From contig JAQBFN010000020.1 of NCBI GenBank assembly GCA_032123335.1, positions 7,540 through 71,539 on the forward strand: DNA of 64,000 bases. Reading direction: 5' to 3'. Below the pieces are notes generated by a model. The model was not told the DNA's origin, ran no database searches, and saw only the letters and a list, made by a program, of their open reading frames with translations. Origin of the DNA: Candidatus Micrarchaeota archaeon (lineage in GTDB: Archaea > Micrarchaeota > Micrarchaeia > Anstonellales > Bilamarchaeaceae). Numbering within the stretch: position 1 is the first letter of the stretch; every line of letters begins with the position of its first letter. Below, in pieces: positions 7,326 to 55,291 of this stretch. The position numbers were made by a program, and so were the translations under genes.

Positions 7326-7360
7326 CTTCAATTTTTATAATCATTATTCGTTTCTAAGCT

Positions 7361-22033: not shown

Positions 22034-22540
22034 ATGAATAAGGATTTCTTTGCCGGTGTTTTTGCCGGCGTAATCCTCTTTTTTGTTCTCTCATTCATGT
22101 TTCTTCCCGCATATTCCGTTTCCGTAATCTCTTCTCCCGGAGCCGAAGACGAAATCCTCTCCCTTATTGATTCCGCCCAGCACTCAATCTACATAGACAT
22201 GTACATACTCACTTCCGAAAAAGTTGTGGATGCACTAATCTCCGCCCACTACCGCGGCGTAGAAGTAAAGGTAATCCTTGAAGAGCGCACAGGTGCAAAC
22301 ACCCTTGCTTTCTCCCGCCTTGAAGGTGCAGGCACCCAGGTCTGCTGGGCCTCTGCAGTCTACAAGCTCTCCCACCCCAAACTCATAATTGTGGACAACC
22401 AGAAAGCCCTGGTAGGCTCCCACAACCTCTCCAACTCCGCCCTTAATTCCAACCGGGAAATCTCCCTCCTTGTCCAGGGAAACGTAGTTTCTACCCTCCT
22501 TTCCCTTTTCAATTCCGATTGGGATGCCTGTTCCATGTAG
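22034..22540 (+). CDS. Secreted phospholipase-D-family (HKD) nuclease/phosphodiesterase
   Basis: N-terminal TM/signal. Single HKD motif HPKLIIVDNQKALVGSHNLSNSA (HxKx4Dx6GSxN), as in Nuc-type PLD nucleases. Confidence 0.75.
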   Translation: MNKDFFAGVFAGVILFFVLSFMFLPAYSVSVISSPGAEDEILSLIDSAQHSIYIDMYILTSEKVVDALISAHYRGVEVKVILEERTGANTLAFSRLEGAGTQVCWASAVYKLSHPKLIIVDNQKALVGSHNLSNSALNSNREISLLVQGNVVSTLLSLFNSDWDACSM

Positions 22541-22591: not shown

Positions 22592-25500
22592 ATGAATATG
22601 GCAGCAGTTGTAGAGCGGAGTAATTGGTGTAAATTACTGCTAGCCGTATTTATGCTCGTTTCCCTCTCTTTTTCCGCCGGATTCACCTCCGAAGACCTTT
22701 CCAATAAAATAACCTTCATTGACATCTCTGCCGTGGATGGAGTGGTAACCGCCAAGCTCACTGTGCTGACGATGGATGCCAGCATTGAGCACAACCAGTC
22801 CGCCCTCATTGAGGCGTTCAGGGAAGCAGAGAAAGGAAACCAGGCAACCGCAGAGCAAATCCTCGAGGAAGCAGGCCTGAACACTTTCTCAGGGTATTTA
22901 GGCAAAATCGAATCTGAAAGGGCCCCCATAGAAGGTGCAGACCTCAATTTCTACTACACAGTAAAAACCTACGATGATGACAACTATCCTGTCTTCACCA
23001 GGGAGCCAGTGCCCTTTTGTGCAGAGCCAGACCCGGTGCTAACTGATGAGGAGGGGATCGCAGAATGCGACCTCACCCCTTATTATGAAGGAATATACGA
23101 GGGTAAATGCACAGAAATTTCCGTGGTTTTCGGGGATTCAGTATTTGGCACCCAGCTAAATGACGAAACTTATCCCTATGTAGAAGAGATAGTTTACGTA
23201 TGTGACCAGGAAACAACCGCACTCGCAGTAATGCGCGAAGAGATAAGGACCATATTCTCAGACCAGGCCCAGAACCCCCTCTGCTTTGCATCAATGCTTT
23301 TGGGAGGAATGCTGCTCGCTTCAATGTTCTTTGCAGGAAGGAGCCCACTTTCCCTCCTTGATATCACAACACCCCTTCTCCCCAAGGCAAAAGCCATCTC
23401 CTACAGCGGCCTTAGGATGGGAGTCGGTTTCGGGCGCATCATGAAAGAGATGGGTGGCATGGGCGGGCCCGGAGGCATGATTGCATCCTCTTCCAAAGCA
23501 ACCACCGAGCGCATGCTCCGCTACCTCCGCTCCAAGGGCAAATACAGCAAGCGCATGGTTGACCTCATAATGAATTCCGGGGCCAATGAAGTCCTCAAGA
23601 TGCTTGCTCTCCGCTCACTTATTGCAGGAAAAAGCGAGCATTATGTAAAGGGCATTCTCGGGTTCAAGGGAAAAGCCCTGACTGAAGCAGATTTCCAGTC
23701 GGCCTATGCAAAGGTTCTTGCAGACCTTGATAAATCTTCAGATGCAAACGACCTGAATGAATACACGGTTAAGGGGTATGGTGCTAATGCACAGAAGCAG
23801 GGCCTCCACGATTCAGTGCTCCTCCTTGCCCAGATGAGCATGCTTAATGCAATGCAGCAGCAAGCCTTTATTGATTCTACCGGGGAAATACCTGCCTGGT
23901 TCAAGACCCCGCTTGGAAAAACCCTGGGAAGGCTCCCCTTCATCGGAACCCACATAATGGGAGGCACAGCATCCCTCTTTTTTGGTGGCAGGCACCTAGG
24001 CCGCTATTACAATAGTTTTGCAAGGGGAGCAGTGCGCGGAATAGGCGATGTGTTAACCCCCAAAGATAAGAAATTCAGCAAGCGCATCCAGATGGCTGTT
24101 GACGATGCGCGTGTAAAAGGCAAGAAGCCAGGATTTTTTGCAAACTGGGTTGCCCTCAAGGACAATGAGCGCCAGCTCGTAAAAATCTTTGACAATTTTG
24201 AATACGGTTCCGCACTCTACAAGCGCATGATGAAGGAAGCCCGCAAGGATGTCCTCAACTGGCTCGTGGGTACGGTAATTGCGAAATACGGAGGAAAGAT
24301 GGACCTCACCCGTGAAGAGGTTATAGAAATTGGGGAAAAGACTCCGGATGAATTGATGTTCCGCACCTTCAACAAGATTGAATTCTCAAAGATTGAAGGA
24401 GAGCTCCGTAGGCTCCTCTCAGATCCAGGCATGAGGGACCTCCAGAAAGCCCGCGCCCTGATGCGCCTTATGGAAGCATACGGAATAGCTTTCGACAAAC
24501 AGGGCGTTACTGATGCAATCCACATGCTCTCCAAAATAGACCGGGAAGACCCCAAATCCCCTGCAGCAGTAGGCATAATCGATCCGACCAACAGGTACGC
24601 AATGGATTGCCACAAGCTCATGCGCCTCCAGAGCTACCTACAACAGCAGTTCAACGTTGACAGGCTAACAGACATCAAGTCAGAGTACAAGGCTTTCCAG
24701 GACGGAGGAAAATTCTTCTTCACAGTAGGAAGGGAAACCCTCTCCCACGGCGCAAGCGATTTCACGTTTGGCACCTTTTTCCGCTCCAAGTACCGCGAGG
24801 CGCTTGAGAACTCCAAAGCAGGGGAAACCCGCCCCATCTCCATAAGGGACATCGCGAACTACTCTTTCCTCCGCATCGCAAACGAGCGCTGGGGACTAAT
24901 TGACCCAAATATGCCCGGCCTGGACAAGAAGCTCGTAGCAGTAATGAAGAACGCAGAAACCTGGCTCCGCTCCCTAGCAGATCCAGAGTTCCTCAGGCGC
25001 AACCCCTCGTACTCCAATCTTCTCAATTCCCTTTATGGCCCAAGTGCCCGTGCTGGTGTGAAAGACGACACCATGGACATAATGGAGCACGGTGCCGAAT
25101 ATGGCACAGCCAAGGGCGCGTGGCGCATGGACATGAAGGCCCACTGGAAAATTTACGGGGGCCCGATGGGCGGAGTAAAATCTTCTGTAGAAAACCAGGC
25201 ATTTGGGGAAGTTAACCGTGCCCACAATGTCCCCATGGCTATCCAGTCGATGATTGACAAGGGACTCAACTACAAGGATGCTTCAGGCAAGTACATGAAC
25301 ACTGTTGTTGAAAGCTACCTCTTCAAGCGCCTGAAGGGAATGATAGAGCAGGACAATCCAAATACCTATTTCACTTCCCAGGGTGAATTCGACCGCTTCA
25401 GGCAGCTCTGGGCCTCTTACAAATCACACATTGCCAGAGACAAAGGCATAGATGAAAGGAGTGTTACCGACAAGCAGGTTGCAGAATTCATAAAGAAGCC

Positions 25501-28219
25501 CCTTGGGATTGAGGAGCTTTCAAAGTCCAGCTGGATAAGGCTGAAGGAAGGCTCAGTTGCTCCGTTTATCCAGGAACACACTTTCAAGCTTGCCCAGGCC
25601 GACCGTGTAATAAACGCCAAATATTACATACGGCGTGGCGGGTACTGGGAGGAATTCGCGCCTGAGAAATTCCAAAAGCAGAAACCATTTATGGATGTTG
25701 TCCTGGGCAAGGACAGCGAAATCAGGAAAATGCTTGGGGACAAGGATTACATTCTTTCTGGAGGTGAGATACGTGGTGTATCCAACAAGCTCCTGAAGGA
25801 ATATGAAACTATTATGAATAACCTGGCGCGAGTACCCCAGGCAGATATTGACAAGCTTTTCGCGAAACTCAAAACAGGCGCTGCGAAAGACCCCAAGAAT
25901 TCTGAAGCCTATGCTGCAATGGCAGGATATGTGCTCAGTGGAAGGGCAGGAAGGGACCCAACTAAACTTGACCTTGCCGATAATTTCGGGACCCGTCTAG
26001 GTGAAAAAGTCCGCATGGAACTCATGCTCAAGGACTACCAGAATGCCAAAACCACGGAGCAGAAAAGGGCTGCCGCCAGGGACCTTATGAACTGGGCAAA
26101 AGCAGGAGGGCCTGGTGAGGAGCGCCACGTAAAAGTCGCCCTCCTCCTGTACACCCACGCAGACAGAACCGGGGACTGGAAAGATTTCAACAATTTTGAT
26201 GCAGTGAAGCTCATGCCCGGTGCAACTGCAGATCTAAAGCCTGGCAATGTCCAGGAGTACGAAAAGCTCACCGGGCTCAAAGGCTGGATCAAGAATGCAG
26301 TTAACCTCACCCAACACATCACAGACCCGATAAGCAAGAAGTTCAACCTTGGGCTTGAGCAGTTCATGCTTTCCACTTTCGGCAAGCAAATGAAGAGCGA
26401 ATATGAAGGAAGCCTTGTTTCAGAATACTTCAGGCAAACAGGAGGAAAATTCGCTGCTAAGCTTGCGGCAGGGGAATTCGGCAACCCGGATATGCGAGCC
26501 AACGCGGACCCAAGAATAAAGGAATTCAACCGCCTCATGGATTCATTTACCCGCTACCATGCAGTCTGGGACGAGACAATCACCCGTGACCCCAGGGGCA
26601 ACTCTTCAGCCATTGGGGGCGCATTCATTTACTCAGGTTTCTTCCACCACGGTCCTGCCATGGGATTCGGCCCCGGCATGTACAGGAGATGGTCGTCTGC
26701 AGGCCACCAGCAGCCCTGGACTACCTGGGGAGGATTCAAGGCAAATGTGCGTGAGCGCGCATGGGGCCTCCAGTTTGTCCCCCAGATGTTCAACTGGGCA
26801 GTGGGAACTCCTTTTGGTGTTGCCTACAGGACATACATAACCTCCAGATGGGGCTTCATGTCCAAGTATGACAGGAAATACAGCAGTGACGCCCCCCTAG
26901 TCACAGAAACCCCTGAAAAATACCGTGCAGGCGCAATTCAGAAATATGATGATCAACTGGCAGCCTATCAGGCTAAAATGATTGAGCAGATTGCTAAACT
27001 CCAGCAAAACAAGGGCTATTCAAACGAAGATGCATTTACCCAGGCCAACCAGGAGCTCAGGGGTGAAAGGCCAACTCCTCCTTCATTTGAGCTGGAGCGT
27101 GACACCCTCAGGCCCTATTCCGAAACCCACCCCAGGACTTCAGAAGGCCGCGCTGCAATGTTCAACTGGTTTTATGCTTCATTTGACCCCACATCAACGA
27201 ACCTCAAGCGTTTTGCATCAATCGCGGCCGCTGCACCCGGTTCACTTATGACTCCCCTGCACCTAATCAGAGGAGTGCAGAGCAATATCCTGAAGGGGGG
27301 CACTCCCGGGATAAACCGCTCTGACAGCAACCCATACTATGTAACTCCCGGAGGAATGAGGGGCCAGATGATAAAGGCTACTGGCCCCATGGTCAAGAGG
27401 CAGTATGGAGGAACTGAAATTGTTACCGGTGTAGTACGGTCCCATGAAGATATGTGGGCTTACCAGGCAGGGGTTAATGCTGTTTGGGGCAATGCAAACC
27501 CCGGCGCATCCTACATTGATTTCAGCCAGAGCCTACACCTGGACCCCCGCGCAGCCAACTATCTCCGCTATGAATCACGTTTCCGCCCATATATGCAGTA
27601 TGATGAATATGTGGACAAGCAATCCAAGCTCGGCCTTGTGAAGAGGGACATCGACCCATTCAAGCTCATGATGGCAAGGAATGCAGAAATCAGGCATTAT
27701 AAGTTCCCTGAGAACACTCTCTTCAGGTTCCTAAACCCAGCAGCATTCGCTATCTACAAAGCACAAGCATTTGTTACCAAGCGCGGGCAAACCCTTGTCA
27801 ATGCAAGGAACATGTATAGGGATGCAACAACCAATGTTTCAACCACCACCGGCGGGGCTATGCTTACAGGAGTAGGCAACTTTGCATCCAAGATAGGTGG
27901 CAAGGTAGGGACTATGATGCACCAGAATCTAGAGCTTGGATTCAGGAAGAGCATCCGCTACTGCCAGTCCTGCGGAGGGCCGAGGGTTGAAGGCGGCGTA
28001 TGCAATGCCTGCGCAAGAAAAACAAGATGTTCTTACGAAGGATGCGACCATATCGGGGACCCATCCCACAACCACTCCTGCGTACATGGAATACAGCGCA
28101 ACCTCCTGAATGAAGAATTTTCTCAAAAAGGCGGCTTCAAAGTTGCAGGAGAGAGGGCCTCCGGTTGGTATGGCCTAAGAAAAAGCCATTGGGGAACACT
28201 ATGGGGTAGAGAACCATGA
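22592..28219 (+). CDS. Giant (1875 aa) single-pass membrane/surface protein of unknown function
   Basis: Uninterrupted 5.6-kb ORF. N-terminal signal peptide, a ~220-aa N-terminal domain, then one TM (…CFASMLLGGMLLASMFFAG…). No P-loop or known catalytic motif. Trp/Gly-rich segment (aa ~1330-1420). C-terminal Cys/His cluster CQSCGG…CNAC…CSYEGCDH…HNHSCVH. Confidence 0.7.
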   Translation: MNMAAVVERSNWCKLLLAVFMLVSLSFSAGFTSEDLSNKITFIDISAVDGVVTAKLTVLTMDASIEHNQSALIEAFREAEKGNQATAEQILEEAGLNTFSGYLGKIESERAPIEGADLNFYYTVKTYDDDNYPVFTREPVPFCAEPDPVLTDEEGIAECDLTPYYEGIYEGKCTEISVVFGDSVFGTQLNDETYPYVEEIVYVCDQETTALAVMREEIRTIFSDQAQNPLCFASMLLGGMLLASMFFAGRSPLSLLDITTPLLPKAKAISYSGLRMGVGFGRIMKEMGGMGGPGGMIASSSKATTERMLRYLRSKGKYSKRMVDLIMNSGANEVLKMLALRSLIAGKSEHYVKGILGFKGKALTEADFQSAYAKVLADLDKSSDANDLNEYTVKGYGANAQKQGLHDSVLLLAQMSMLNAMQQQAFIDSTGEIPAWFKTPLGKTLGRLPFIGTHIMGGTASLFFGGRHLGRYYNSFARGAVRGIGDVLTPKDKKFSKRIQMAVDDARVKGKKPGFFANWVALKDNERQLVKIFDNFEYGSALYKRMMKEARKDVLNWLVGTVIAKYGGKMDLTREEVIEIGEKTPDELMFRTFNKIEFSKIEGELRRLLSDPGMRDLQKARALMRLMEAYGIAFDKQGVTDAIHMLSKIDREDPKSPAAVGIIDPTNRYAMDCHKLMRLQSYLQQQFNVDRLTDIKSEYKAFQDGGKFFFTVGRETLSHGASDFTFGTFFRSKYREALENSKAGETRPISIRDIANYSFLRIANERWGLIDPNMPGLDKKLVAVMKNAETWLRSLADPEFLRRNPSYSNLLNSLYGPSARAGVKDDTMDIMEHGAEYGTAKGAWRMDMKAHWKIYGGPMGGVKSSVENQAFGEVNRAHNVPMAIQSMIDKGLNYKDASGKYMNTVVESYLFKRLKGMIEQDNPNTYFTSQGEFDRFRQLWASYKSHIARDKGIDERSVTDKQVAEFIKKPLGIEELSKSSWIRLKEGSVAPFIQEHTFKLAQADRVINAKYYIRRGGYWEEFAPEKFQKQKPFMDVVLGKDSEIRKMLGDKDYILSGGEIRGVSNKLLKEYETIMNNLARVPQADIDKLFAKLKTGAAKDPKNSEAYAAMAGYVLSGRAGRDPTKLDLADNFGTRLGEKVRMELMLKDYQNAKTTEQKRAAARDLMNWAKAGGPGEERHVKVALLLYTHADRTGDWKDFNNFDAVKLMPGATADLKPGNVQEYEKLTGLKGWIKNAVNLTQHITDPISKKFNLGLEQFMLSTFGKQMKSEYEGSLVSEYFRQTGGKFAAKLAAGEFGNPDMRANADPRIKEFNRLMDSFTRYHAVWDETITRDPRGNSSAIGGAFIYSGFFHHGPAMGFGPGMYRRWSSAGHQQPWTTWGGFKANVRERAWGLQFVPQMFNWAVGTPFGVAYRTYITSRWGFMSKYDRKYSSDAPLVTETPEKYRAGAIQKYDDQLAAYQAKMIEQIAKLQQNKGYSNEDAFTQANQELRGERPTPPSFELERDTLRPYSETHPRTSEGRAAMFNWFYASFDPTSTNLKRFASIAAAAPGSLMTPLHLIRGVQSNILKGGTPGINRSDSNPYYVTPGGMRGQMIKATGPMVKRQYGGTEIVTGVVRSHEDMWAYQAGVNAVWGNANPGASYIDFSQSLHLDPRAANYLRYESRFRPYMQYDEYVDKQSKLGLVKRDIDPFKLMMARNAEIRHYKFPENTLFRFLNPAAFAIYKAQAFVTKRGQTLVNARNMYRDATTNVSTTTGGAMLTGVGNFASKIGGKVGTMMHQNLELGFRKSIRYCQSCGGPRVEGGVCNACARKTRCSYEGCDHIGDPSHNHSCVHGIQRNLLNEEFSQKGGFKVAGERASGWYGLRKSHWGTLWGREP

Positions 28220-30588
28220 ACAAACTGCACATATTCATACTGATTGCAATTCTGCTATTCGGATGCACAGAAATGGAAAACTATTATGAGGGGGAAGGGA
28301 AAGAAATAAACCGCACAGAACCCCTGGATATGGACAACCTGATTTCCTGTGACACCACAGACCATGATTGCATCTGCATGGTCTGCGAAAACAGTGATTC
28401 ATTTGAATTCACCAATCCCTTCAACCGTTTTTACAGCATAGACCTCAGGGAAGGAGAATGCAGATTCGAAACAGATTGCACAGAGGAAAAATTCCTGGAA
28501 ATCTCCACCCCGGATTTTGAGAATTTCCTTTTTGGCCAGGAGCAGGTGCGCTTCTTCATGCTTGGCCAGGGCTCGAATTTTGCAGAGTTCGCAGACGCAA
28601 ACCGCTACTGCAATAACTCCCTTAGGCTCGCAGTCCGCTGGCTCTATTCCACTGATGGATTTGAGTATCCTGCCCCCCAGCCCGAGCGCGCAGAATGCTT
28701 CCTTGAAAAGGACACGCTTCCCGTTTACCTCCTTTACAGCGAAGGAGAAGCAATGAGCGTCCCCCGTGCTGCTTACATCGCATCGCAATTCCAGGAATCC
28801 GGCCCCGTAATCCTTACTTCTGAATTCGATTTCGACCCCTCCAACTTCCAACAGCTTAACGATGCAATAGACCAGGCTATCGCAATGAAATCCGCTTGCC
28901 CTGATTGCCTGATTGCAATCGCACCCAAATTCAAATACAACTACAGCGAAGTTGATGGCGAATATTACGGCTATAACCACACCTACGATGCAATCGATTA
29001 CATTTTCGAGACCCAGGAGGCCCGTGACAGCATAGCCCTTGTTGCCATAGGCCTCAATTCCCATTACACCCAAAACTGTGCAGGCGCTTCCCTCCTTTGG
29101 GATGGGATGGCTTACTCCAAATACATAATGCAGCAGCATGGAAAGCCCACGCTCTGGGCATATGTTCTTCTTGATGATAGGCAGCCCAGTGCAGCCCCCT
29201 ATGGTTCCCTTGAATACTGCGAATGGAATTCAGATGAGATCACACGAACATACGGTGACCTCTACAAATACATCCCCTCTTTCGTAAACAATGGGGTAAT
29301 CGGAATCGCCCCATATTCCCTTTACGGTCTGGGTACGGGTCCGCTTGAATGCGCAGATTGCGGAATGATGGCAGTGGATGGAACAACTTATCCACAGCAC
29401 GCAGAATGGTTTTCCCTCTGCCAGGTTTACTATACCGGGAGGGGAGTAATCCCAGTGGTTTTCTCCCCCAGCCCATGCGCTGACTGCTCATTTGCAAACA
29501 ACTTCAACATGTTCCAGCTTTCCGACTCTTACTACGGCTCCGGCCCAACCATTGAGCAATACCAGGACAAGGCAGTTGCTCCCTTCTCCACATTCTATAG
29601 GTGCAACGGACAGCTCATGAGTGAGGTACCCGAAGAGATAACCCTCCCTTCTTACTCTGCGGGCGATAATGAATGCAACTGGTACCCCGAGCTGGATATT
29701 TTCTCAGACCTCCGAGACTCCGACCCTGTGCTTGCCCGTGCAATAACCTGGGGTGAAACCGGCTTAAATGATGATACTGAAGGCCCAGATGGCGACATGT
29801 GTGAAGCTTCTGATGTTGATTTTGGCCTGGCCAGCTTTCCTGAATGCGTAACCGACCCAGAGGGAAGATGTGGAACACAGTGCGCCCCGACAAACTGGCG
29901 CAAGCATTCCCTGGGCCTCATGCAAATCCATGTATATCCCCAGCAAATCTGGGCCGATTATCCCCCTGGCTCTGGAACAGAGCAGGAGGCTCTCTGGTGC
30001 GCTGGAAATGCCGTAGATGGATTCAACCCATTCAACAAAGCCCACAACGCATGCGTAGGGACCGCAATCATCCTGGAATATCTCCAGGTGGGAAAATCCA
30101 AGGTTTCAAGCAATGAGCAGCAGCTCGGGCTCGCCTACCTAAAAACCACATATGGGGAAGACAGCGATGAATACCTCAACATGAAGAACGCATTCATTGT
30201 TTTCATTTCTTCTTATTACTACAACGGGTTCTCAGCCTTCCAGAACGGAATAGATTCCTGGATATATGAATACTCCAAGCAGAGCGGGATAACCGATGAA
30301 TACTGCGAAGTTGCAGCCGGCTCAGACCCCTGCTGCAACAGCGATGGCACAGCCAAGAGCAACAACTGCTGTGGAGTAGAGAACTTCATAAACTACTACC
30401 AGTCCTGCAAGCTCCCCACACTTTCCAACCAGCAGGCAGGGGCATACGGGCTTAGGCTCCTCGGCCACTACAAAGCCCTTCTAAAATGCGAAAAATACGA
30501 TGAGGCCCAGCACGAGCAGAACCTCATAGACTACCTTGAATCCTATGGTGAATCATTAGAAGAACCAGAGGAAGCGGAAGAAAGCTAG
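28216..30588 (+). CDS. Cys-rich lipoprotein with lytic-transglycosylase (SLT/lysozyme-like) motifs
   Basis: Lipobox LFGC. About 50 Cys. ITWGETGLN…SLGLMQIHVY…KAHNACVG…AIILEYLQ corresponds to SLT motifs I-III (E-S/T, GLMQ, AYNxG). 4-bp overlap with the giant gene. Confidence 0.55.
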   Translation: MNKLHIFILIAILLFGCTEMENYYEGEGKEINRTEPLDMDNLISCDTTDHDCICMVCENSDSFEFTNPFNRFYSIDLREGECRFETDCTEEKFLEISTPDFENFLFGQEQVRFFMLGQGSNFAEFADANRYCNNSLRLAVRWLYSTDGFEYPAPQPERAECFLEKDTLPVYLLYSEGEAMSVPRAAYIASQFQESGPVILTSEFDFDPSNFQQLNDAIDQAIAMKSACPDCLIAIAPKFKYNYSEVDGEYYGYNHTYDAIDYIFETQEARDSIALVAIGLNSHYTQNCAGASLLWDGMAYSKYIMQQHGKPTLWAYVLLDDRQPSAAPYGSLEYCEWNSDEITRTYGDLYKYIPSFVNNGVIGIAPYSLYGLGTGPLECADCGMMAVDGTTYPQHAEWFSLCQVYYTGRGVIPVVFSPSPCADCSFANNFNMFQLSDSYYGSGPTIEQYQDKAVAPFSTFYRCNGQLMSEVPEEITLPSYSAGDNECNWYPELDIFSDLRDSDPVLARAITWGETGLNDDTEGPDGDMCEASDVDFGLASFPECVTDPEGRCGTQCAPTNWRKHSLGLMQIHVYPQQIWADYPPGSGTEQEALWCAGNAVDGFNPFNKAHNACVGTAIILEYLQVGKSKVSSNEQQLGLAYLKTTYGEDSDEYLNMKNAFIVFISSYYYNGFSAFQNGIDSWIYEYSKQSGITDEYCEVAAGSDPCCNSDGTAKSNNCCGVENFINYYQSCKLPTLSNQQAGAYGLRLLGHYKALLKCEKYDEAQHEQNLIDYLESYGESLEEPEEAEES

Positions 30589-47026: not shown

Positions 47027-48241
47027 ATGCTTAACACAGAAGAAATCCGCAAAGATTTTCCTATTCTTGAGCGCAAAATAAACGGCCACCCGCTCGTTTA
47101 CCTGGACAATGGCGCAACCTCCCAGAAGCCCATCCAGGTAATCAATTCAATTGTGGATTACTACGAAAACCACAACGCAAATGTGCACCGCGGAGTGCAC
47201 ACCCTGAGCGCAGAAGCCACAGAAATGTACGAAGAAGCCCGCAAAAAGGTTGCCAAGTTCATAAACGCGGAACCCGAGGAAATAATCTTCACAAAGAATG
47301 CTTCCGAAGCCATCAATATGGTAATGTATACATATGGGGAGCAGAACATTTCTGCGGGGGACACCATTACAACAAGCATAATGGAGCACCACTCAGGTTT
47401 TATTCCCTGGCAGGCCCTCGCCAAGAAAAAGAGCGCAACGCTTTCCATAATGAACGTAACCAGGGAAGGGGAGATCCCCGAATCCGAATACTCCAAGATC
47501 CAGGGCGCAAAGCTCACCTCCATTGTGCACGCTTCCAATGTTCTTGGTACCATAAACCCAGTAAAGGAATTCGCAAAGCTTGCCCACGAAAACGATGGCA
47601 TAATTTTAGTGGATGGTTCCCAATCCGTTCCACACCTCTCCGTAGATGTGAAGGATTTGGATTGCGATTTTTTTGCATTCACGGGCCACAAGATGCTCGG
47701 CCCCACAGGCATAGGAGTGCTTTACGGAAAGAAGGAGCTGCTTGAGAAAATGCCCCCATTCCTATATGGGGGGGAGATGGTTGTTGATGCAAAAGTCGAA
47801 GGGTGCAAATGGAACGAAATCCCGCACAAATTCGAAGCAGGGACCCCCAACATGGCCGGCACAGTAGGCCTCGGTGCAGCAATCGACTACCTAACTAAAC
47901 TCGGAATGGAGAATGTGCGCGCCCACGAAATCGAGCTCCTGGACTACGCAACAAAGGCCCTCCTTGAAATTGAGGGTTTGGAGCTCTACGGCCCCAAGGA
48001 CCCGCACAAAAGAACCGGAATCCTCACTTTCAATATCCCGGGGCTTTCCTCCATAGACCTCTCCTCTTTCATGGACGAGTATGGTTTCGCAATCCGCTCA
48101 GGATTCCACTGCGCCCAGCCCGTGCACGAAGCCCTCGGGATTCTCCCATCCGCCCGCATTTCTTTCTACATCTATAACACAAAGGAGGAAATCGATGCAT
48201 TAATCCCCAGGATAAATGAAGTAAGAAGGGTGATATCATGA
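47027..48241 (+). CDS. sufS: Cysteine desulfurase (SufS-type)
   Basis: PLP-Lys region (FTGHKMLGPTGIGVLYG). Catalytic Cys loop (RSGFHCAQP). Confidence 0.9.
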   Translation: MLNTEEIRKDFPILERKINGHPLVYLDNGATSQKPIQVINSIVDYYENHNANVHRGVHTLSAEATEMYEEARKKVAKFINAEPEEIIFTKNASEAINMVMYTYGEQNISAGDTITTSIMEHHSGFIPWQALAKKKSATLSIMNVTREGEIPESEYSKIQGAKLTSIVHASNVLGTINPVKEFAKLAHENDGIILVDGSQSVPHLSVDVKDLDCDFFAFTGHKMLGPTGIGVLYGKKELLEKMPPFLYGGEMVVDAKVEGCKWNEIPHKFEAGTPNMAGTVGLGAAIDYLTKLGMENVRAHEIELLDYATKALLEIEGLELYGPKDPHKRTGILTFNIPGLSSIDLSSFMDEYGFAIRSGFHCAQPVHEALGILPSARISFYIYNTKEEIDALIPRINEVRRVIS

Positions 48242-48696
48242 GCGAAAACAGGTACCAGAAGTTCGTAGAGCTGTTCAAAAATCCGTTAAACCGAAGGGAA
48301 ATGGAAAACCCTGACGTAACCCATGAAGGGCGGAACACCTGTGGGGACACCCTTATGGTCTTCCTCAAAATAGATGACGGAAGAATAGAAGATATTTCCT
48401 ACCAGGGAGCCTTCTGCGCATTCAGCAATGCTTCTGCCTCCCAGGTAACCGAGTTCATAAAAGGACTGACCCTGGACGAAGTCCTTGCAATAGACAACCC
48501 CAAGCTTTTCGAGCTGATTGGGGATGATTTAAGCGATAACTCCCACAGGCTGAGTTGCATCCTCTTCCCACTGAACACGGTAAAACAAGCCTGCGAAAAA
48601 TACAAGCAAAATGGTCCGGATAAAACTCCCAAAAAACTAAGCAAGGATATTGATTGCCACTGCGATGAGCACAATGCAGAGCTGGGAATCCAGTAG
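48238..48696 (+). CDS. sufU: SufU/NifU-like Fe-S cluster scaffold
   Basis: Conserved Cys ligands (…NTCGDTLMV…CAFS…LSCILF…). 4-bp overlap with sufS. Confidence 0.8.
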   Translation: MSENRYQKFVELFKNPLNRREMENPDVTHEGRNTCGDTLMVFLKIDDGRIEDISYQGAFCAFSNASASQVTEFIKGLTLDEVLAIDNPKLFELIGDDLSDNSHRLSCILFPLNTVKQACEKYKQNGPDKTPKKLSKDIDCHCDEHNAELGIQ

Positions 48697-48728: not shown

Positions 48729-50117
48729 GTGAGCATGAAAGTAACTTTTTGCGGTGCAGCCGGGATAGTCACAGGCTCCTGCTATCTAATCGAATCCGGA
48801 AACAAAAAGATCCTGGTGGACTGTGGCATGTTCCAGGGCCCCAAGGATATCACGCGCATGAATTACCTTCCTTTTAAGTTTGACCCAAAAAGCATTTCAT
48901 GCGTGCTCCTTACGCATGCGCATATTGACCATTCCGGGCTCATCCCCAAGCTCTTCAGGAAAGGCTTTAGGGGAAAGGTGCTCTGCACAGCCCCCACCAA
49001 GGATTTGTCCAGGATCATGCTCGAGGATTCAGCATACATAAATGAAAAGGATGTTGAAGATGAAAACCGGAGGAGGAAACGAGAGGGGCTCGCGCTCCGT
49101 GAACCCCTCTTTACCATGGCTGACGCTAAGAAATCCCTTCGTCTCTTTTCTTCGGTAAATTACGGGCGCAGAATAAAAATCGCTGAGGGAATAAGTGCAA
49201 CGTTCAGGGATGCCGGCCACATACTTGGCTCCTCAATCATTGAGCTTTTTGTTGAGGAGAAAGGGAGGAAGACTAAGTTGGTATTTTCTGGAGACCTTGG
49301 GCAGTGGGACGTCCCAATTGTCCGGGACCCAACCATAATACAAGAGGCAGATTACCTCTTTCTTGAATCAACCTATGGAGATAGGAGCAGGGAGAATTTT
49401 GAGGAGAAGGAGAAGGCACTGCATGATGCAATAAAGAAAACTTTCAAGAGAGGAGGCAAACTTATGATTCCTTCTTTTGCTGTTGAGAGGACTCAGGAAC
49501 TTCTTTATTTTATTCACCGGCTCATAAAAAAGGGAAAATTTCCAAAAGAGAGGGTTTTCCTGGACAGCCCCCTAGCAATCAAGGCAACAGAGGTGTTCAG
49601 AAAACATGGTGCATTTTATGATGAAGAAACCAAACGTTCTTTTGCCACTCCATTTACTTTTGCCCGGTTGGAGAATTTAGTTACTGGCAGGGATTCAATG
49701 AAGCTCAACAATTATCCAGGCCCTTGCATCATCATAGCCGGAAGCGGCATGTGCACAGGAGGAAGAATAAGGCATCACTTGAAACATCACCTCTGGGAAC
49801 CTGAAAATACCCTGCTTTTTATCGGGTACCAGGCTGAGGGCACACTTGGAAGGCGTATTCTGGATGGTGCAGAGTATGTCCATATGATGGGAGTAAAAGT
49901 AGCAGTAAAAGCAGAGGTTGAGAGAATAGAGGGTTTTTCCGCCCATGCTGATTCGGAAGAGCTGCTCCGCTGGGCAGATGGTTTTGAGGCAAAGCCCAGG
50001 AAGGTTTTTGTGGTGCATGGGGATATGGATGCTTCAACTGCTTTGGCCAAACGGCTCAACTCCCTGGGCTATAAAACACATATTCCAAAAATCGGGGAAA
50101 CTGTTGAGCTCAAATAG
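48729..50117 (+). CDS. beta-CASP ribonuclease (CPSF-like, aCPSF2/RNase-J-like)
   Basis: MBL motifs LLTHAHIDHSG. CPSF-like N-terminus (VTFCGAAGIVTGSCYLIE…ILVDCG). Terminal VFVVHGD. Confidence 0.7.
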   Translation: MSMKVTFCGAAGIVTGSCYLIESGNKKILVDCGMFQGPKDITRMNYLPFKFDPKSISCVLLTHAHIDHSGLIPKLFRKGFRGKVLCTAPTKDLSRIMLEDSAYINEKDVEDENRRRKREGLALREPLFTMADAKKSLRLFSSVNYGRRIKIAEGISATFRDAGHILGSSIIELFVEEKGRKTKLVFSGDLGQWDVPIVRDPTIIQEADYLFLESTYGDRSRENFEEKEKALHDAIKKTFKRGGKLMIPSFAVERTQELLYFIHRLIKKGKFPKERVFLDSPLAIKATEVFRKHGAFYDEETKRSFATPFTFARLENLVTGRDSMKLNNYPGPCIIIAGSGMCTGGRIRHHLKHHLWEPENTLLFIGYQAEGTLGRRILDGAEYVHMMGVKVAVKAEVERIEGFSAHADSEELLRWADGFEAKPRKVFVVHGDMDASTALAKRLNSLGYKTHIPKIGETVELK

Positions 50118-50807: not shown

Positions 50808-51803
50808 ATGAGTTTGATTTCCAGATTCAAGAAAACTGCCTGGAAGAAGTGCAGGATGGTCCTTCCCGAGGGGGAAGACCCCCGTGTCCTTGAAGCCGCC
50901 ATAAAGGCGAAGAAGCTCAAGATTGCCGATCCATTCTTTGTTGGAAACAAAAAGGAAATAGAAAAAACAGCAAAAAGGCTCAAAGTTTCCCTCAAAGGCT
51001 TCGAAATAATCGACACCTCCTCAGGAATCCCCGAAAAATATATTGTTGCCTACCGCAAAGTGCGCAAAGCGCCCCCCGCTCTCGCAAATCGTATCCTCTC
51101 CAACCCACTCTTCCTCGCTTCCCTCATGGTAAAGATGGGTGAAGCAGATGCAATGGTTGCAGGCGCAGTTTCCTCTTCCGCAGATGTAATCACCGCTGCC
51201 ACTGGAATAATCGGACTGCGCAAGGGGGTCTCCGTTCCCTCAAGCTTCTTCATAATGGAAATCCCAAACCCCAAAGTAGGTGAAAACGGCCTCCTCCTTT
51301 TTGCAGATTCTTCTGTAAACATTGAACTAACTCCGGAGCAGATGGCGGATGTTGCAATCACCACTGCCCAAACCGCCAAAGAGCTCATGAATTGGACCCC
51401 CCGCGCTGCAATGCTTTCTTTCTCCACGAAAGGAAGCTCCATTCACCCGCGTGCAGACAAGGTAATCGAAGCCACAAAAATCGCAAACAAAAAAGCCCCC
51501 AAATTATACATCGACGGTGAAATGCAGGGCGATTCCGCCCTTGTTCCCTCCACCGCAAAAAAGAAAATAAAGGGTAAGCTCGGGCCAGTTGCAGGCCGCG
51601 CCAATATCCTCATATTCCCGGACCTTGACTCAGGAAACATCACCTACAAGCTTACTCAGTGTCTCGGTGGCGCAAACGCCTACGGCCCCATTCTCCAGGG
51701 CTTCCAAAAACCTGTTTCCGACCTTTCCAGAGGCGCCAAAACTGAAGACATTCTAGGCTCAATAGCTATCCTGAGTACCTGGGCAAAAAGGGTGAAAAAA
51801 TGA
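50808..51803 (+). CDS. pta: Phosphate acetyltransferase
   Basis: Pta/PtB fold. 331 aa. 4-bp overlap with ackA. Confidence 0.8.
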   Translation: MSLISRFKKTAWKKCRMVLPEGEDPRVLEAAIKAKKLKIADPFFVGNKKEIEKTAKRLKVSLKGFEIIDTSSGIPEKYIVAYRKVRKAPPALANRILSNPLFLASLMVKMGEADAMVAGAVSSSADVITAATGIIGLRKGVSVPSSFFIMEIPNPKVGENGLLLFADSSVNIELTPEQMADVAITTAQTAKELMNWTPRAAMLSFSTKGSSIHPRADKVIEATKIANKKAPKLYIDGEMQGDSALVPSTAKKKIKGKLGPVAGRANILIFPDLDSGNITYKLTQCLGGANAYGPILQGFQKPVSDLSRGAKTEDILGSIAILSTWAKRVKK

Positions 51804-52990
51804 AGAAAATACTCGTATTGAATTGCGGAAGCTCATCCATAAAGTACCGCCTTTTCGACAGCAAATTCAACACCCTCCTTTATGGAATAATCGAGCGCAT
51901 TGGCCCCAATGCCCAGCTCGTGCATCACAAGGGAAAGAAACCACTCACGGAAAAAGCAGATGCGAAAAACCACTCCCAGGGAGTCCAGCTTATGGTGAAG
52001 CTCCTCCACGATCCGGAGTGGGGCGCAATAAAGCGCGTAACTGAAATCTCGGTTGTGGGCCACCGCGTAGTCCACGGAGGGCAGTTCGCAAAGACCTCCC
52101 TCGCTTCCGGAGTCGCGCTGAAATACCTGAAGGATTTTGAGATGCTCGCCCCCCTCCACAATCCCAACAACATAACCGGGATAAATGAGATGAAGAAGGC
52201 GATGCCCACTGTTCCACAGGTGATGGTTTTCGATACTGAATTCCACCAGAGTATGCCCCGCAAAGCCTACATGTACGGTTTCCCCTACAGCTATTTTGAC
52301 AAGTATGCTGTGCGCAAATACGGTTTCCACGGAACCTCCCACAAATATGTTGCGCAGGAAGCCGCAAAATTCCTAAAAAAGAAATCCCCCAATTTGATTA
52401 CTTGCCACTTGGGCGCAGGTTCTTCCCTCGCCGCAGTAAAAGCAGGGAAATCCATCGATACCTCTATGGGAATGACCCCGCTTGAAGGCGTAATGATGGG
52501 AACCCGTACAGGGGACACAGACCCTGCAACTCTCCAGTATCTGGTAAATAAGTACAAATTCAAATATGAGGATTTATTCGATACAATGAACCACAAGAGC
52601 GGACTCTTAGGAGTTTCTGGGGTAAGCAAGGATGTCCGGATAATTGAGGGCCGCGCCAAAAAGGGCAACGAGCGCTGCAAGCTTGCCCTGGAAATGTATG
52701 CCTACCGCGTTGCAAAGTACATAGGAGCATACGCGGTTGCGCTCGGGAAACTCGATGCGATTGTATTCACCGCAGGAATCGGCCAGAACTCCTCTTCCAT
52801 GCGAAAGGAAATCTGCTCTTACCTCCAGATATTGGGTGCAAGGCTCGACCCCAAAAAGAACCGAAAACCAATCACTAAAGCCACGGACATCTCCGCCCGC
52901 GGCTCCAAAGTAAAAATCCTGGTAATCCCCACAAATGAGGAATTGATGATTGCAAGGGAAGCTGCAAAGGCAGTAGGTGCATCAAAATGA
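51800..52990 (+). CDS. ackA: Acetate kinase
   Basis: N-terminal ILVLNCGSSSIKY. VVHGG. FDTEFHQSMP. HLGAGSS. Confidence 0.9.
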   Translation: MKKILVLNCGSSSIKYRLFDSKFNTLLYGIIERIGPNAQLVHHKGKKPLTEKADAKNHSQGVQLMVKLLHDPEWGAIKRVTEISVVGHRVVHGGQFAKTSLASGVALKYLKDFEMLAPLHNPNNITGINEMKKAMPTVPQVMVFDTEFHQSMPRKAYMYGFPYSYFDKYAVRKYGFHGTSHKYVAQEAAKFLKKKSPNLITCHLGAGSSLAAVKAGKSIDTSMGMTPLEGVMMGTRTGDTDPATLQYLVNKYKFKYEDLFDTMNHKSGLLGVSGVSKDVRIIEGRAKKGNERCKLALEMYAYRVAKYIGAYAVALGKLDAIVFTAGIGQNSSSMRKEICSYLQILGARLDPKKNRKPITKATDISARGSKVKILVIPTNEELMIAREAAKAVGASK

Positions 52991-53358
52991 AAATACTTGG
53001 CCTAGGAACTGATCTAGTAGACATGAAAAAGCTAAAGAAAAAGCTCTCAGGGAAATACGGAAAGCACTTCATCAATTCCACGTTTACCCAAAATGAAATC
53101 TGCTGCGCCCAGGAAAAAAACATTGCAAAATTCGCAACCGCATTCGCAGCCAAGGAAGCAGTGTATAAAGCCTTCCGCACAGGCTGGATTGAAGGCAAGG
53201 ATGTAGAATTGCTCAGGGACCCGGAAACCGGGGCCCCCTCAATAACCCTCCATGGAGAAATAAAGAAAATAGCAAAAAAAGGGAAGGTGAAGGAAATCCA
53301 GGTTTCCCTCTCTTTTACGGATTCCCATGCACTCGCAGTAGTCCTTCTTATTTCTTGA
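52987..53358 (+). CDS. acpS: Holo-[acyl-carrier-protein] synthase (4'-phosphopantetheinyl transferase)
   Basis: GLGTDLVDM…, …FTQNE…, …FAAKEAVYKA… are AcpS motifs. 123 aa. Confidence 0.8.
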   Translation: MKILGLGTDLVDMKKLKKKLSGKYGKHFINSTFTQNEICCAQEKNIAKFATAFAAKEAVYKAFRTGWIEGKDVELLRDPETGAPSITLHGEIKKIAKKGKVKEIQVSLSFTDSHALAVVLLIS

Positions 53359-53602
53359 GCGTTTTGCACTTTTTATACATGTAGTCTACTGCCGCTTTGA
53401 TGGTCTTATTCTGCCGCACATCCCGCTGGGGAACCCGGAACCCGAATTCCATTTCTAGTGCCGCAAGCAGTTCCACAATGTCCATGGATTTAGCGTGCAG
53501 GTCGTCAACAAATGATGTGGTGGGCTTTAATTTGCCCGCACTTACCCCGAACACATCCGCAACGACGCTTTTCACTTTCTTCCCGACTTCTTTTTTATCC
53601 AT
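53348..53602 (-). CDS. acpP: Acyl carrier protein
   Basis: …SFVDDLHAKSMDIVELLAALEMEFG…TIKAAVDYM… aligns with the ACP DSL helix II, with the Ser retained. Confidence 0.7.
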   Translation of the reverse strand: MDKKEVGKKVKSVVADVFGVSAGKLKPTTSFVDDLHAKSMDIVELLAALEMEFGFRVPQRDVRQNKTIKAAVDYMYKKCKTLKK

Positions 53603-53603
53603 G

Positions 53604-54011
53604 CTACTTTACCACCTTGAACACCACGATGTTCGTCCCTGCAATCTTCTTTACCTTTGCCTTTACCTTCATGGGCATTTTTTTATTCTGTTTTTCAATT
53701 GCTTCCACACTGGAGACAGGTACCCCTTCAATCATGGTAAAAAACACCGGGCCTTCTTTCAATTCCACTCCGCCGTATGCATATGGGTGGTATTTTGCAA
53801 ATTTCAAGGGAGGTAGATTCCCGCTTGAATAGAAGAGAAGTTCCCCGTCCCCGCTTATCTCCTTCCAATCCATGTTATGCGTACTGCATTTTACACATGC
53901 CGCCTTAGGGGGAAATGTGAAATGCTTGCACTTTTTGCACACCACTCCATAAATCTTTCCTTTCCCGAGGGATTTGTAGAATTTATCAATCATTCTTTCC
54001 ATAATAATCAC
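53604..54011 (-). CDS. DUF35-type OB-fold/zinc-ribbon protein (thiolase partner)
   Basis: CKKCKHFTFPPKAACVKC Zn ribbon plus an OB-fold. 4-bp overlap with the thiolase gene. Confidence 0.7.
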   Translation of the reverse strand: MIIMERMIDKFYKSLGKGKIYGVVCKKCKHFTFPPKAACVKCSTHNMDWKEISGDGELLFYSSGNLPPLKFAKYHPYAYGGVELKEGPVFFTMIEGVPVSSVEAIEKQNKKMPMKVKAKVKKIAGTNIVVFKVVK

Positions 54012-55291
54012 CTCTTCAATACAGTTACTGCAGAATGCATTCCGTATCCGTGGTTATGCACAACTGAAACCTCAGGCTCATCCTTAATTTGCCTTCCCTT
54101 GGCTTCACCCCTCATCTGCTTCACTGCCTCATAAATCTCCGCTCCTGCAGATGCTGCGAATGCATGCCCCTTTGCGTGCCTTCCTCCGGAAGTGTTCATC
54201 GGCTTGTCTCCCTTGTAGGTCGTTCTCCCTTCAAGGACAGCTTCCCATGCTTCCCCTTTCTTGAAGTATCCGCAAATCTCTGATTCAATCAGATGGTAAA
54301 TCTGCATGCAGTCATGCACGTCCAGGTAATCTATGTCTTTGGGCTTGATTTTTGCCATTTTCATTGCAGCCCCAAAGGCTTCCGTGTCCAGTGCCCAATC
54401 CGTTGGGTCGCGCCCATACCAGGGGTAGTTGCCCGAGGCCCAGTGGAACCCCTCAATTGATATCGGCTCTTTCCTGAAGTATTTCTTTGCCTCTTTCTTT
54501 GAGCTGATTAGGTAGGCCGATGCACCATCAACTGTGTTGAGTGCACTCTTTACTCTTGAAGGCCATGCAAGGAACGGATTTTTCCTGCCCGTCCAGAATT
54601 CCCATGAGCTCTTGAATCCTGCTTTCTTTGCCTCCTGCTCCAGGGTAGTCTGCACATATGCCTTTGGATTCTTGGAACCGTGCAGCCTCACTGCTTTGTG
54701 GACTGCCCACATCACTTCATCCATTTTCTCCATAGGTATTCCATATTTTTTTGCATAACCCAGGGTTGGCAGCCCACCATATGCTGTTGCAATATCATAT
54801 GCGTGGTGATATGCATATGCCTGGTCAACACCAAAGTCTGTCCAGTACCAAAGCATGCCCGGGTCAAGCGCTTCCTTTTTCAGCGGGTCATCCGTAGCTG
54901 TTGAAGAAAGTATCTCAGCCCCAACTACAAGAACATTCCTGTATTTTCCTGAGGCTATGTCCATAGCCGCAAGCCCCACACCAGTATTGGTTGTAGCGCA
55001 TGCAGTTGCAAAATGCACCCCTGGCTTTCCCTGCAATCCCAGCCAATCTGCCATCTGCGTGTTGTGTGAATACAAATGTGAACTATGGCTGAGCATACTC
55101 CCAATATAGAACGCATCTATCTCCTTGGGGTCAATCCCTGCTTCATCTATTGCTTCAAAAGCAGCCTCGCACGCAAGTTCCTGGAAAGCCAACCCCTTAA
55201 TTTCAGGGGTTTCAAGAACGCTTCCAAACTTTGTGCACCCTACACCAGTAATTACCGGTTTTTCTCTTAAATTTCCAACATGGGCCATCAA
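54008..55291 (-). CDS. Thiolase-family condensing enzyme (archaeal acetoacetyl-CoA thiolase / SCP-x type)
   Basis: ITGVGCTKFG N-terminal signature and thiolase-fold length. Confidence 0.8.
   Translation of the reverse strand: MMAHVGNLREKPVITGVGCTKFGSVLETPEIKGLAFQELACEAAFEAIDEAGIDPKEIDAFYIGSMLSHSSHLYSHNTQMADWLGLQGKPGVHFATACATTNTGVGLAAMDIASGKYRNVLVVGAEILSSTATDDPLKKEALDPGMLWYWTDFGVDQAYAYHHAYDIATAYGGLPTLGYAKKYGIPMEKMDEVMWAVHKAVRLHGSKNPKAYVQTTLEQEAKKAGFKSSWEFWTGRKNPFLAWPSRVKSALNTVDGASAYLISSKKEAKKYFRKEPISIEGFHWASGNYPWYGRDPTDWALDTEAFGAAMKMAKIKPKDIDYLDVHDCMQIYHLIESEICGYFKKGEAWEAVLEGRTTYKGDKPMNTSGGRHAKGHAFAASAGAEIYEAVKQMRGEAKGRQIKDEPEVSVVHNHGYGMHSAVTVLKR

Follow-up and report, generated by a model that had tools for sequence, protein, structure and literature searches.

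Both acyl carrier protein (ACP) and its activating enzyme, holo-ACP synthase (AcpS), are to our knowledge textbook absentees from Archaea. Genes for both nevertheless occur in a 64-kb stretch of the genome of a very small, symbiotic Candidatus Micrarchaeota archaeon (contig JAQBFN010000020.1; hereafter the window, meaning the whole stretch analysed), where they lie with genes for a Pta-like phosphotransacylase, an acetate kinase (AckA), a DUF35 protein and a thiolase-like condensing enzyme. What might a phosphotransacylase, an acetate kinase, a carrier protein and a condensing enzyme do together in an archaeon? The evidence set out below suggests that the six genes form one functional unit around a dedicated ACP, in which acetate would be loaded onto the carrier and then used by the thiolase and DUF35 proteins for Claisen chemistry. 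To this reading as a whole we would give an even chance.

Organisation of the locus

All six gene annotations, initially proposed from the sequence, are confirmed by family models. On the plus strand, pta (50808–51803; 331 amino acids (aa); PF01515, 333 bits), whose product belongs to an ACP-linked clade of Pta-like phosphotransacylases, is followed by ackA (51800–52990; 396 aa; PF00871, 460 bits) and acpS (52987–53358; 123 aa; PF01648, AcpS-type holo-ACP synthase). As first described, the three genes are chained by 4-bp overlaps, one at each junction. On the minus strand, transcription runs from the gene for an SCP2-type thiolase-like condensing enzyme (54008–55288; 426 aa; Thiolase_N and Thiolase_C_1), through that of its DUF35 partner (53604–54002; 132 aa), which combines a zinc ribbon (PF12172, zf-ChsH2) with an OB fold (PF01796, OB_ChsH2_C), to the gene for an ACP of an unusual H-A-K-S-M type (53348–53602; 84 aa; PF00550). 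The ACP gene is thus the final gene of the minus-strand operon and not the first, as had been supposed, and its 3′ end overlaps that of the convergent acpS by 11 bp. Translation of the thiolase probably begins at the ATG at 55288, with a TTG at 55291 given in the open reading frame (ORF) list, and the 426-aa product is identical to a database protein (P0001). DUF35 likely starts at the ATG at 54002, yielding the 132 aa called in an independent assembly (L001); the alternative is a GTG at 54011.

The contig is genuinely archaeal and belongs to the Micrarchaeota, within the DPANN group. Ribosomal proteins S9, L13 and L18e are encoded directly upstream of the six genes, and archaeal genes flank them on both sides (L30e, archaeal NusA, S12, S7, aEF-2, aEF-1alpha, Topo VI A/B and DUF2070). 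Contamination or a chimeric contig is unlikely, and was rejected, because the flanks are archaeal, the GC content is flat across the region (~0.47–0.50) and the independent assembly has the identical arrangement. The archaeal host named at the outset therefore stands, and the closest genomes are metagenome-assembled genomes (MAGs) of Micrarchaeota, with thiolase identities of 79–85%. Scans of the region for promoters and terminators, which used bacterial models not applicable to an archaeon, gave no more matches than expected from shuffled sequence.

A module conserved across two domains

Do the two convergent triplets belong together? One genome per GTDB species was scanned, six-frame ORFs were searched with profiles built from the window proteins, and gene order was tabulated for the resulting 80 loci, each seen at ~17 kb. 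In ~50 of these 80 species-representative loci, a few kilobases hold the genes for thiolase, DUF35, ACP, Pta and AcpS and, in most cases, AckA. Pta is found at every ACP-bearing locus with at least 3 kb of downstream sequence, and the DUF35 gene stands directly after the thiolase gene in at least 80 loci. The archaeal hosts are Micrarchaeota, Woesearchaeota, three Asgard lineages (Promethearchaeota, Sifarchaeum and Borrarchaeum) and one haloarchaeon. The bacterial hosts are the Candidate Phyla Radiation (CPR; Patescibacteria), Chloroflexota, Bacillota, Desulfatiglandales, Actinomycetes, Spirochaetales and Alphaproteobacteria, and include the cultured Bacillota Geosporobacter ferrireducens IRF9 and Sinanaerobacter chloroacetimidivorans BAD-6. 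Complete genomes among the carriers include Micrarchaeota OY970071.1 and that of G. ferrireducens (NZ_CP017269). Several MAG labels, among them 'Methanosarcinales' and 'Gammaproteobacteria', may result from erroneous binning.

The genes occur in at least seven orders. They are convergent in most DPANN genomes and co-directional in Asgard archaea and bacteria, and the variants include AcpS ahead of ACP, and Pta both before and after AckA. In the cultured haloarchaeon Halodesulfurarchaeum sp. HSR-GB (GCA_031432215.1; locus L096, 7001–11463), a thiolase-DUF35 pair faces ACP-Pta-AckA-AcpS, and ACP is the first gene of the pta-ackA-acpS operon. When all other flanking ORFs were clustered, no additional neighbour proved to be conserved in archaeal or CPR loci. 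Because no other neighbour is conserved, the six genes (five in several Bacillota, which lack AckA) would constitute the whole unit. Adjacency kept in ~50 species-representative genomes of two domains is far beyond chance. Judged by gene order, the module appears to be a mobile functional unit, because it persists in at least seven arrangements with no other conserved neighbour. The initial annotation had proposed that the convergent triplets act together in ACP-dependent acyl chemistry, and the shuffled synteny of ~50 genomes, together with the haloarchaeal operon, upholds that proposal.

The same observations bear on the simplest alternative, in which an ordinary CoA-dependent Pta-AckA acetate/ATP pathway merely sits beside an unrelated ACP/thiolase operon and no chemistry is shared. 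In fermentative DPANN and CPR organisms, a Pta-AckA pair is indeed what one would expect as the step that yields ATP. Synteny, however, strongly disfavours coincidence: the association has survived at least seven rearrangements over two domains, the Bacillota core that lacks AckA still joins Pta to thiolase, DUF35, ACP and AcpS, and the haloarchaeal ACP is co-operonic with pta-ackA-acpS.

Horizontal spread of the module is supported by its patchy distribution over DPANN, Asgard archaea, Halobacteria, CPR and several bacterial phyla, and by a neighbour-joining thiolase tree (midpoint-rooted, without outgroups) whose topology departs from taxonomy. The horizontal acquisition suggested initially thus holds for the spread of the module, while in the present lineage the transfer is old, because composition is uniform and Micrarchaeota share the module at 79–85% identity. 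Proteobacterial thiolase-DUF35 pairs without ACP or Pta form, in the same tree, a single derived clade nested among ACP-linked ones, and no conserved neighbours were found in this clade. Among the homologues listed there were no fusions of ACP with Pta, thiolase or DUF35, the ACP search having reached Micrarchaeota relatives only. Metallo-beta-lactamase-fold genes adjoin the module at one DPANN locus (L003, 7230–7886) and one Bacillota locus (L055, 5611–6594); clustering does not place them in one conserved family, and they could be chance neighbours or thioesterase-like accessory genes.

A phosphotransacylase with altered CoA contacts

If the six genes act together, which acceptor does the Pta serve? 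The window Pta passes the NCBIfam phosphotransacetylase model NF007233 (318 bits; cutoff 310) and falls below the TIGR00651 pta equivalog (298.5 bits; cutoff 311.2). It is 43% identical to the enzymes of Methanosarcina thermophila and Porphyromonas gingivalis (structures 1QZT and 6IOW). The window protein, like every module Pta, retains the catalytic residues Ser309, Arg310 and Asp316 (M. thermophila numbering, used throughout).

The residues that contact CoA have fared differently. In the P. gingivalis Pta–acetyl-CoA structure, Arg135 (M. thermophila Arg133) binds the β-phosphate of CoA, Arg89 and Lys92 (Arg87 and Lys90) bind its 3′-phosphate, and the backbone of Val150 (position 148) recognises its adenine (PMC6461089). 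The window Pta retains Arg87, has Thr in place of Arg133, has a shortened Lys90 loop and carries Pro at position 148. Every one of the 50 thiolase-linked Ptas has a shortened Lys90 loop and has replaced Arg133 (by Thr, Ala, Ser, Met, Leu, Ile or Val), and ~45% of them have lost Arg87; Arg133 is present in 80 of 80 canonical representatives. Pro148 was observed in 41 of the 50 thiolase-type Ptas, in all 83 nearest homologues and in all 35 Ptas from a sister cassette that contains an alternative GlmU, and in none of the 80 canonical representatives. Proline has no backbone NH. Compared in this way, the clade appears to keep the residues of catalysis but to have lost several contacts to the CoA nucleotide.

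No single position suffices as a marker of ACP dependence. The pair Arg133-Pro134 was rejected as a simple CoA-versus-ACP marker, as Pro134 is not general (RA in 53 and RP in 24 of 150 representatives). Position 133 alone was also rejected, as the GlmU-type Ptas, which are ACP-linked, have Arg, Lys or Gln there; Lys90 is mostly kept in them. Arg133 loss, the shortened Lys90 loop and Pro148 are informative only in combination, and the combination has exceptions.

Genomic context separates the Ptas in a similar manner. The nearest homologues all adjoin ACP and AcpS genes, whereas a control Pta with 50% identity and canonical residues is not ACP-linked and adjoins a split Pta N-terminal (AAA_26/DRTGG) domain. 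This pattern also counts against an ordinary acetate pathway that lies beside the carrier genes by coincidence. In favour of such a pathway, Pta and AckA have all canonical catalytic residues, and the window Pta passes NF007233 and keeps Arg87; with the context and the synteny set against these points, we regard coincidence as very improbable.

The acetate kinase and the holo-ACP synthase

The window AckA scores 468 bits against TIGR00016 (cutoff 293) and aligns over its full length to the AckA structures of Thermotoga maritima and M. thermophila. Catalytic residues N7, R91, H123, D148, H180, R241 and E384 are conserved in 42–45 of 45 module AckAs, as are V93, L122, F179 and P232, which we take, from studies of M. 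thermophila AckA, to form the acetate pocket. Because the catalytic and pocket residues are both conserved, the predicted carboxylate substrate is acetate, or at most propionate.

AcpS is a single-domain phosphopantetheinyl transferase of ~120 aa, with an N-terminal 'GTD' and a 'FAAKEA' motif, and passes TIGR00516 (60.7 bits; cutoff 59.8) and TIGR00556 (61.6 bits; cutoff 45.35). Even free-living bacteria that carry the module have this AcpS alongside it. Co-inheritance of AcpS in bacteria that must own another such enzyme fits a private carrier system; a dedicated AcpS would travel with the module even there because the carrier is private and atypical.

An unusual acyl carrier protein

How atypical is the carrier? 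The ACP passes the hidden Markov models PF00550 (42.1 bits; cutoff 20.8) and, marginally, NF002148 (71.8 bits; cutoff 71), and is below the cutoff of TIGR00517 (60.6 bits; cutoff 70.45). The candidate thus holds up as an ACP. Its AlphaFold model (predicted local distance difference test (pLDDT) 88.5) is a four-helix bundle with helices at residues 3–18, 39–53, 59–63 and 68–83, and the top Foldseek match is the Thermus thermophilus ACP, with a template modelling (TM) score of 0.87. The predicted carrier serine, Ser39, is the first residue of helix II in this model, which answers a check proposed initially. The DSL-like motif named in that check is not present: the sequence reads His-Ala-Lys-Ser-Met versus the canonical G-A-D-S-L, with Lys38 in place of the Asp of DSL.

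The residue before the carrier serine is Lys or another non-acidic residue in every thiolase-linked ACP. The window protein has an isoelectric point of 9.6, versus 4.1 for Escherichia coli AcpP, and so departs from both hallmarks of a type II ACP, the Asp-Ser-Leu motif and a strongly acidic protein. The ACP of Halodesulfurarchaeum sp. HSR-GB is acidic overall, yet keeps the H-A-K-S-M motif. The ACP is consistent with a dedicated subtype with Lys before the carrier serine, which fits a private carrier system.

The thiolase and DUF35 proteins

The module thiolases form a distinct family of ~420–427 aa. In the family alignment, Cys97, His325-Asp326-Cys327 (the HDC motif of SCP2-type thiolases) and His371/His375 are invariant. 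The window thiolase scores far under the cutoffs of models for characterised archaeal acetyl-CoA acetyltransferases: 148.8 bits against NF053570 (cutoff 600), the equivalog of the mevalonate-pathway acetoacetyl-CoA thiolase, and 205 bits against NF004720 (cutoff 420). Its AlphaFold model (pLDDT 82.7) is matched best by the Pyrococcus furiosus thiolase 7yvy and by the thiolase of the Methanothermococcus thermolithotrophicus thiolase/HMG-CoA synthase/DUF35 complex, and further by SCP2 thiolases, PhlC/MucC and BbsB. The DUF35 protein carries a CxxC...CxxC motif.

The M. thermolithotrophicus complex (PDB 6ESQ/6ET9) likewise joins an SCP2-type thiolase to an adjacent DUF35 (TM ~0.79–0.86), and its thiolase and that of the module share the same Cys/His catalytic machinery. 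Unlike that complex, the module has no 3-hydroxy-3-methylglutaryl-CoA (HMG-CoA) synthase, carries ~35 extra thiolase residues and is always tied to ACP, AcpS and Pta. A gene for HMG-CoA synthase was found neither beside thiolase/DUF35 in the ~50 module loci nor in the window. The initial identification of the pair as the archaeal acetoacetyl-CoA-forming complex is not sustained, the thiolase falling far short of the mevalonate-pathway model and no locus having an adjacent HMG-CoA synthase.

If the condensing enzyme works on a carrier protein, could the module build longer chains? This was the initial interpretation, in which thiolase/DUF35 would be the condensing enzyme of ACP-dependent fatty-acid or polyketide-like elongation, with reductive enzymes encoded elsewhere, which would make the system an ACP-using counterpart of the archaeal fatty-acid synthase (FAS) that DUF35 scaffolds. 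In Sulfolobus acidocaldarius, complexes of ketothiolase and DUF35 do perform non-decarboxylative fatty-acid synthesis (10.1101/2024.07.05.601840), and this archaeal condensing unit resembles that of the module. The Sulfolobus system, however, is CoA-based and ACP-independent, and its genes cluster with those for a reductase, a dehydratase and an enoyl reductase (10.1101/2024.07.05.601840), whereas the module has ACP, its synthase and Pta/AckA, and no reductive enzymes nearby. ACP and AcpS are a hallmark of FAS and polyketide synthase (PKS) systems, and FabG, FabI and FabZ have been reported in some DPANN MAGs (PMC10634959). Tandem duplicated thiolase-DUF35 pairs in some modules may also be cited for elongation.

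Against elongation, no ketoreductase, dehydratase, enoyl reductase, malonyl transferase (FabD) or thioesterase is conserved beside the module in the ~50 loci. None of these lies in the window either, where FabG, FabZ, FabI, FabD and HMG-CoA synthase were looked for and not found. The condensing enzyme is an SCP2-type thiolase with an HDC motif and not a ketoacyl-ACP synthase (KAS), as would be expected of type II FAS or PKS. Standard FAS II enzymes would probably not recognise the basic ACP with its non-canonical K-S motif, and de novo lipid synthesis is commonly considered absent from CPR and DPANN hosts. Elongation would require partners encoded elsewhere in the genome and is accordingly an improbable account of the module.

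The duplicated pairs lie in a woesearchaeal locus (L024, 5922–9676), an actinomycete locus (L045, 7773–14761) and a Syntrophomonas locus (L049, 803–4231); in the thiolase tree, the second copies group on a deep branch of their own.

A sister cassette with an alternative GlmU

Which of the six genes form the core? Thermoproteota MAGs and several bacteria carry a sister cassette of Pta, in some cases AckA, an alternative GlmU, ACP and AcpS (L086, 8001–12170; L087; L088; L089, 1471–4969; L091, 7001–11208; L095, 3361–8244). Its 420-aa nucleotidyltransferase/hexapeptide protein matches TIGR03991 ('alternative bacterial GlmU') at 370–385 bits (cutoff 225), and its Ptas, with 53–56% identity, are the closest relatives of the module Pta outside the thiolase-linked set.

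The two cassettes share homologous Pta, AckA, ACP and AcpS and the Pro148 signature of Pta, and differ in the consumer, which is a nucleotidyltransferase/hexapeptide acetyltransferase in the one and thiolase/DUF35 in the other. The sister ACPs are canonical and acidic with D/E-S motifs, whereas module ACPs are non-acidic before the serine; the sister Ptas keep Arg or Lys (or Gln) at position 133, whereas the module Ptas have lost Arg133. A NagB-like gene adjoins the sister cassette in two lineages.

The sister cassette suggests an acetyl-ACP-dependent route of amino-sugar acetylation, in which Pta is the only plausible ACP loader. Because it keeps four genes and swaps thiolase/DUF35 for GlmU, the invariant quartet would be Pta, AckA, ACP and AcpS, with a variable consumer. 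The evidence thus moves Pta and AckA, taken initially as a neighbouring ordinary acetate pathway, to the predicted invariant core. It also means that the Pta-Ack genes of archaea with the sister cassette are ACP-linked; the Pta-Ack of Bathyarchaeota has been interpreted in the literature as acetogenesis.

A broader proposal follows the two cassettes together: AckA and this Pta clade would provide CoA-independent, ATP-driven charging of a private ACP with acetate, for interchangeable consumers, namely thiolase/DUF35 for C–C bond formation to acetoacetyl-ACP and the alternative GlmU for N-acetylation. This generalisation is offered tentatively, at somewhat less than an even chance.

Proposed pathway and its direction

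The gene identities, the intact catalytic residues and the conserved association are observed directly. From these, the following pathway can be proposed. AcpS would convert apo-ACP into holo-ACP, and AckA would phosphorylate acetate to acetyl-phosphate. The specialised Pta would then use acetyl-phosphate to acetylate the phosphopantetheine thiol of holo-ACP, instead of or besides free CoA. Finally, thiolase/DUF35 would use acetyl-ACP, forming an acyl-enzyme at Cys97 and employing the HDC/His machinery, in a non-decarboxylative Claisen condensation to acetoacetyl-ACP. That ACP is the substrate of both Pta and thiolase, that the unit runs in the biosynthetic direction and that a C4 product results are what we infer from the comparisons above. 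The acetyl-donating direction is favoured because the consumer of the sister cassette is an acetyltransferase.

The loading step has a precedent. In the FakAB/PlsX/ACP route of Gram-positive bacteria, a kinase phosphorylates a carboxylate and a phosphotransacylase equilibrates the acyl-phosphate with acyl-ACP. The step from acetyl-phosphate to acetyl-ACP would be a short-chain counterpart of this fatty-acid-kinase/PlsX route. The module shares its logic, but the families differ (AckA and Pta versus FakA/FakB and PlsX), the substrate is short-chain and ACP is a predicted acceptor. Some module Pta homologues have weak matches to the PlsX family (PF02504). The nearest enzymes by family are the canonical Pta-AckA pairs of M. 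thermophila and P. gingivalis (1QZT, 6IOW, 1G99), which have the same folds, catalytic residues and acetate pocket as the module enzymes; in the module, CoA-nucleotide contacts are lost or changed (Arg133, Lys90 loop, Pro148) and the genes lie within ACP/AcpS operons.

All the proposed steps except the condensation would be near equilibrium, and the unit could therefore also run in reverse, from thiolysis through acetyl-phosphate to ATP. This possibility is the basis of a serious rival, in which the module is catabolic and conserves energy. Thiolase/DUF35 would thiolytically cleave a β-ketoacyl thioester, a free β-dicarbonyl or a C-acetylated compound with holo-ACP as the acetyl acceptor, Pta would release acetyl-phosphate and AckA would make ATP, so that acetyl units are harvested for substrate-level phosphorylation. 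By established bioenergetics, thermodynamics favours the direction that runs from thiolysis through Pta and AckA, and DPANN and CPR organisms are ATP-limited fermenters.

Regulation points the same way in part of the distribution. The only recurrent extra neighbour of the module is an AraC-family regulator (AraC_binding_2 and HTH_18), encoded divergently upstream in 11 free-living bacterial loci (L041, L042, L044, L047, L052, L054, L055 at 6798–7793, L060, L061, L065 and L075). The regulator implies that the module is induced by a small molecule there, and its AraC_binding_2 sensor domain suggests substrate induction.

Structural relatives add to this case. PhlC and MucC, which are DUF35-associated, take acetyl groups off C-acetylated substrates via an equivalent cysteine (PMC12960953). 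The PhlACB and MucABC C-acetyltransferases to which they belong (PDB 5M3K and 9VBO; PMC12960953) combine thiolase-like and DUF35 subunits, form an acetyl-enzyme on that cysteine and are structural matches to the module thiolase. They differ in needing a third subunit resembling HMG-CoA synthase (HMGS) or KAS III, and in using acetyl-CoA or acetylated phenols without ACP, Pta or AckA. That HMGS/KAS III-like subunit, PhlA, is absent from the module, all loci having only thiolase-like and DUF35 subunits. Nor is any gene to make a β-ketoacyl-ACP (a ligase, a CoA/ACP transferase or a dehydrogenase) conserved nearby. The sister cassette, moreover, works only in the acetyl-donating direction, implying that the shared quartet charges ACP. 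On balance, the catabolic scheme is unlikely, though it deserves more weight than any other competitor of acetate loading.

Several points weigh against acetate loading followed by condensation. The condensation catalysed by thiolase is endergonic, and no downstream enzyme that could pull it is encoded nearby. The AraC regulators of the 11 free-living bacteria are more typical of inducible catabolism, and several Bacillota modules lack AckA, leaving a Thl-DUF35-ACP-Pta-AcpS core. ACP as the substrate of Pta is a prediction from gene context and the loss of CoA contacts. The CoA 'site 2' that the altered residues make up is not agreed to be the catalytic site (PMC6461089). Pro148 is missing from 9 of the 50 thiolase-type Ptas, and the loss of Arg133 and the change at Lys90 are not a general ACP signature, since the GlmU-type Ptas retain Arg or Lys at position 133 and mostly retain Lys90. 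A second, ordinary Pta/AckA or partner reductases may lie elsewhere in the genome, of which 64 kb are covered here.

All parts of the proposed system come from known families. What would be new is an ACP-dependent thiolase/DUF35 system coupled to loading by a kinase and a phosphotransacylase; no description of the module, or of acetyl transfer from acetyl-phosphate to ACP, was found in the literature.

Other genes in the window

A cysteine desulfurase (Aminotran_5) and NifU/IscU pair is encoded ~2 kb upstream of the module (47027–48696, plus strand). A link of the ACP-ISD11 kind between the module and this pair was considered and rejected, as the adjacency is not kept at other loci. Between the two lies a gene for a beta-CASP/metallo-beta-lactamase RNase (48729–50117, plus strand) without the N-terminal KH region of aCPSF1; its top NCBIfam match, to the Cas14 model of type VII CRISPR, scores 421 bits where the cutoff is 800, and the protein is therefore not a member of that family.

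Further upstream, two very large ORFs of 1875 and 790 aa (22592–28219 and 28216–30588, plus strand) overlap by 4 bp. They have no Pfam or NCBIfam match and may encode DPANN surface or host-interaction proteins. An LPG_synthase_TM protein (MprF-like membrane domain; 16389–17354, plus strand) and a small PLD-like protein (22034–22540, plus strand) are also encoded, in an archaeon of a group thought to depend on hosts for lipids.

Implications

The rarity of ACP and AcpS in Archaea, remarked on initially, is supported, and here both occur within a conserved, self-contained module found in DPANN, Asgard archaea, haloarchaea and CPR bacteria. The module ties to a carrier protein the Pta-AckA pair, which is usually interpreted as no more than an acetate/ATP switch and, in metagenomic reconstructions, is taken to mark acetogenesis. 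In metabolic models of many uncultured lineages, the Pta-AckA genes may therefore be mis-assigned. The module also suggests a new route to acetyl-ACP, by a kinase and then a phosphotransacylase, analogous to FakAB/PlsX, and a first ACP-dependent member among thiolase/DUF35 enzyme systems. Cultured carriers, namely Halodesulfurarchaeum sp. HSR-GB, G. ferrireducens IRF9 and S. chloroacetimidivorans BAD-6, make the hypothesis testable.

If the proposal is true, part of the acetyl-group metabolism of DPANN, Asgard archaea, Thermoproteota and CPR would run on a protein-bound carrier and not on coenzyme A, and the 'bacterial-type Pta-Ack' genes by which acetogenesis or acetate fermentation is widely diagnosed in uncultured archaea would have to be reinterpreted. 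In archaea, the branch with thiolase could then be the starting point for making fatty-acyl or isoprenoid precursors on ACP, a matter of interest for the lipid divide. For Asgard archaea, a condensing enzyme linked to ACP would be relevant to how fatty-acid chemistry entered the lineage leading to eukaryotes.

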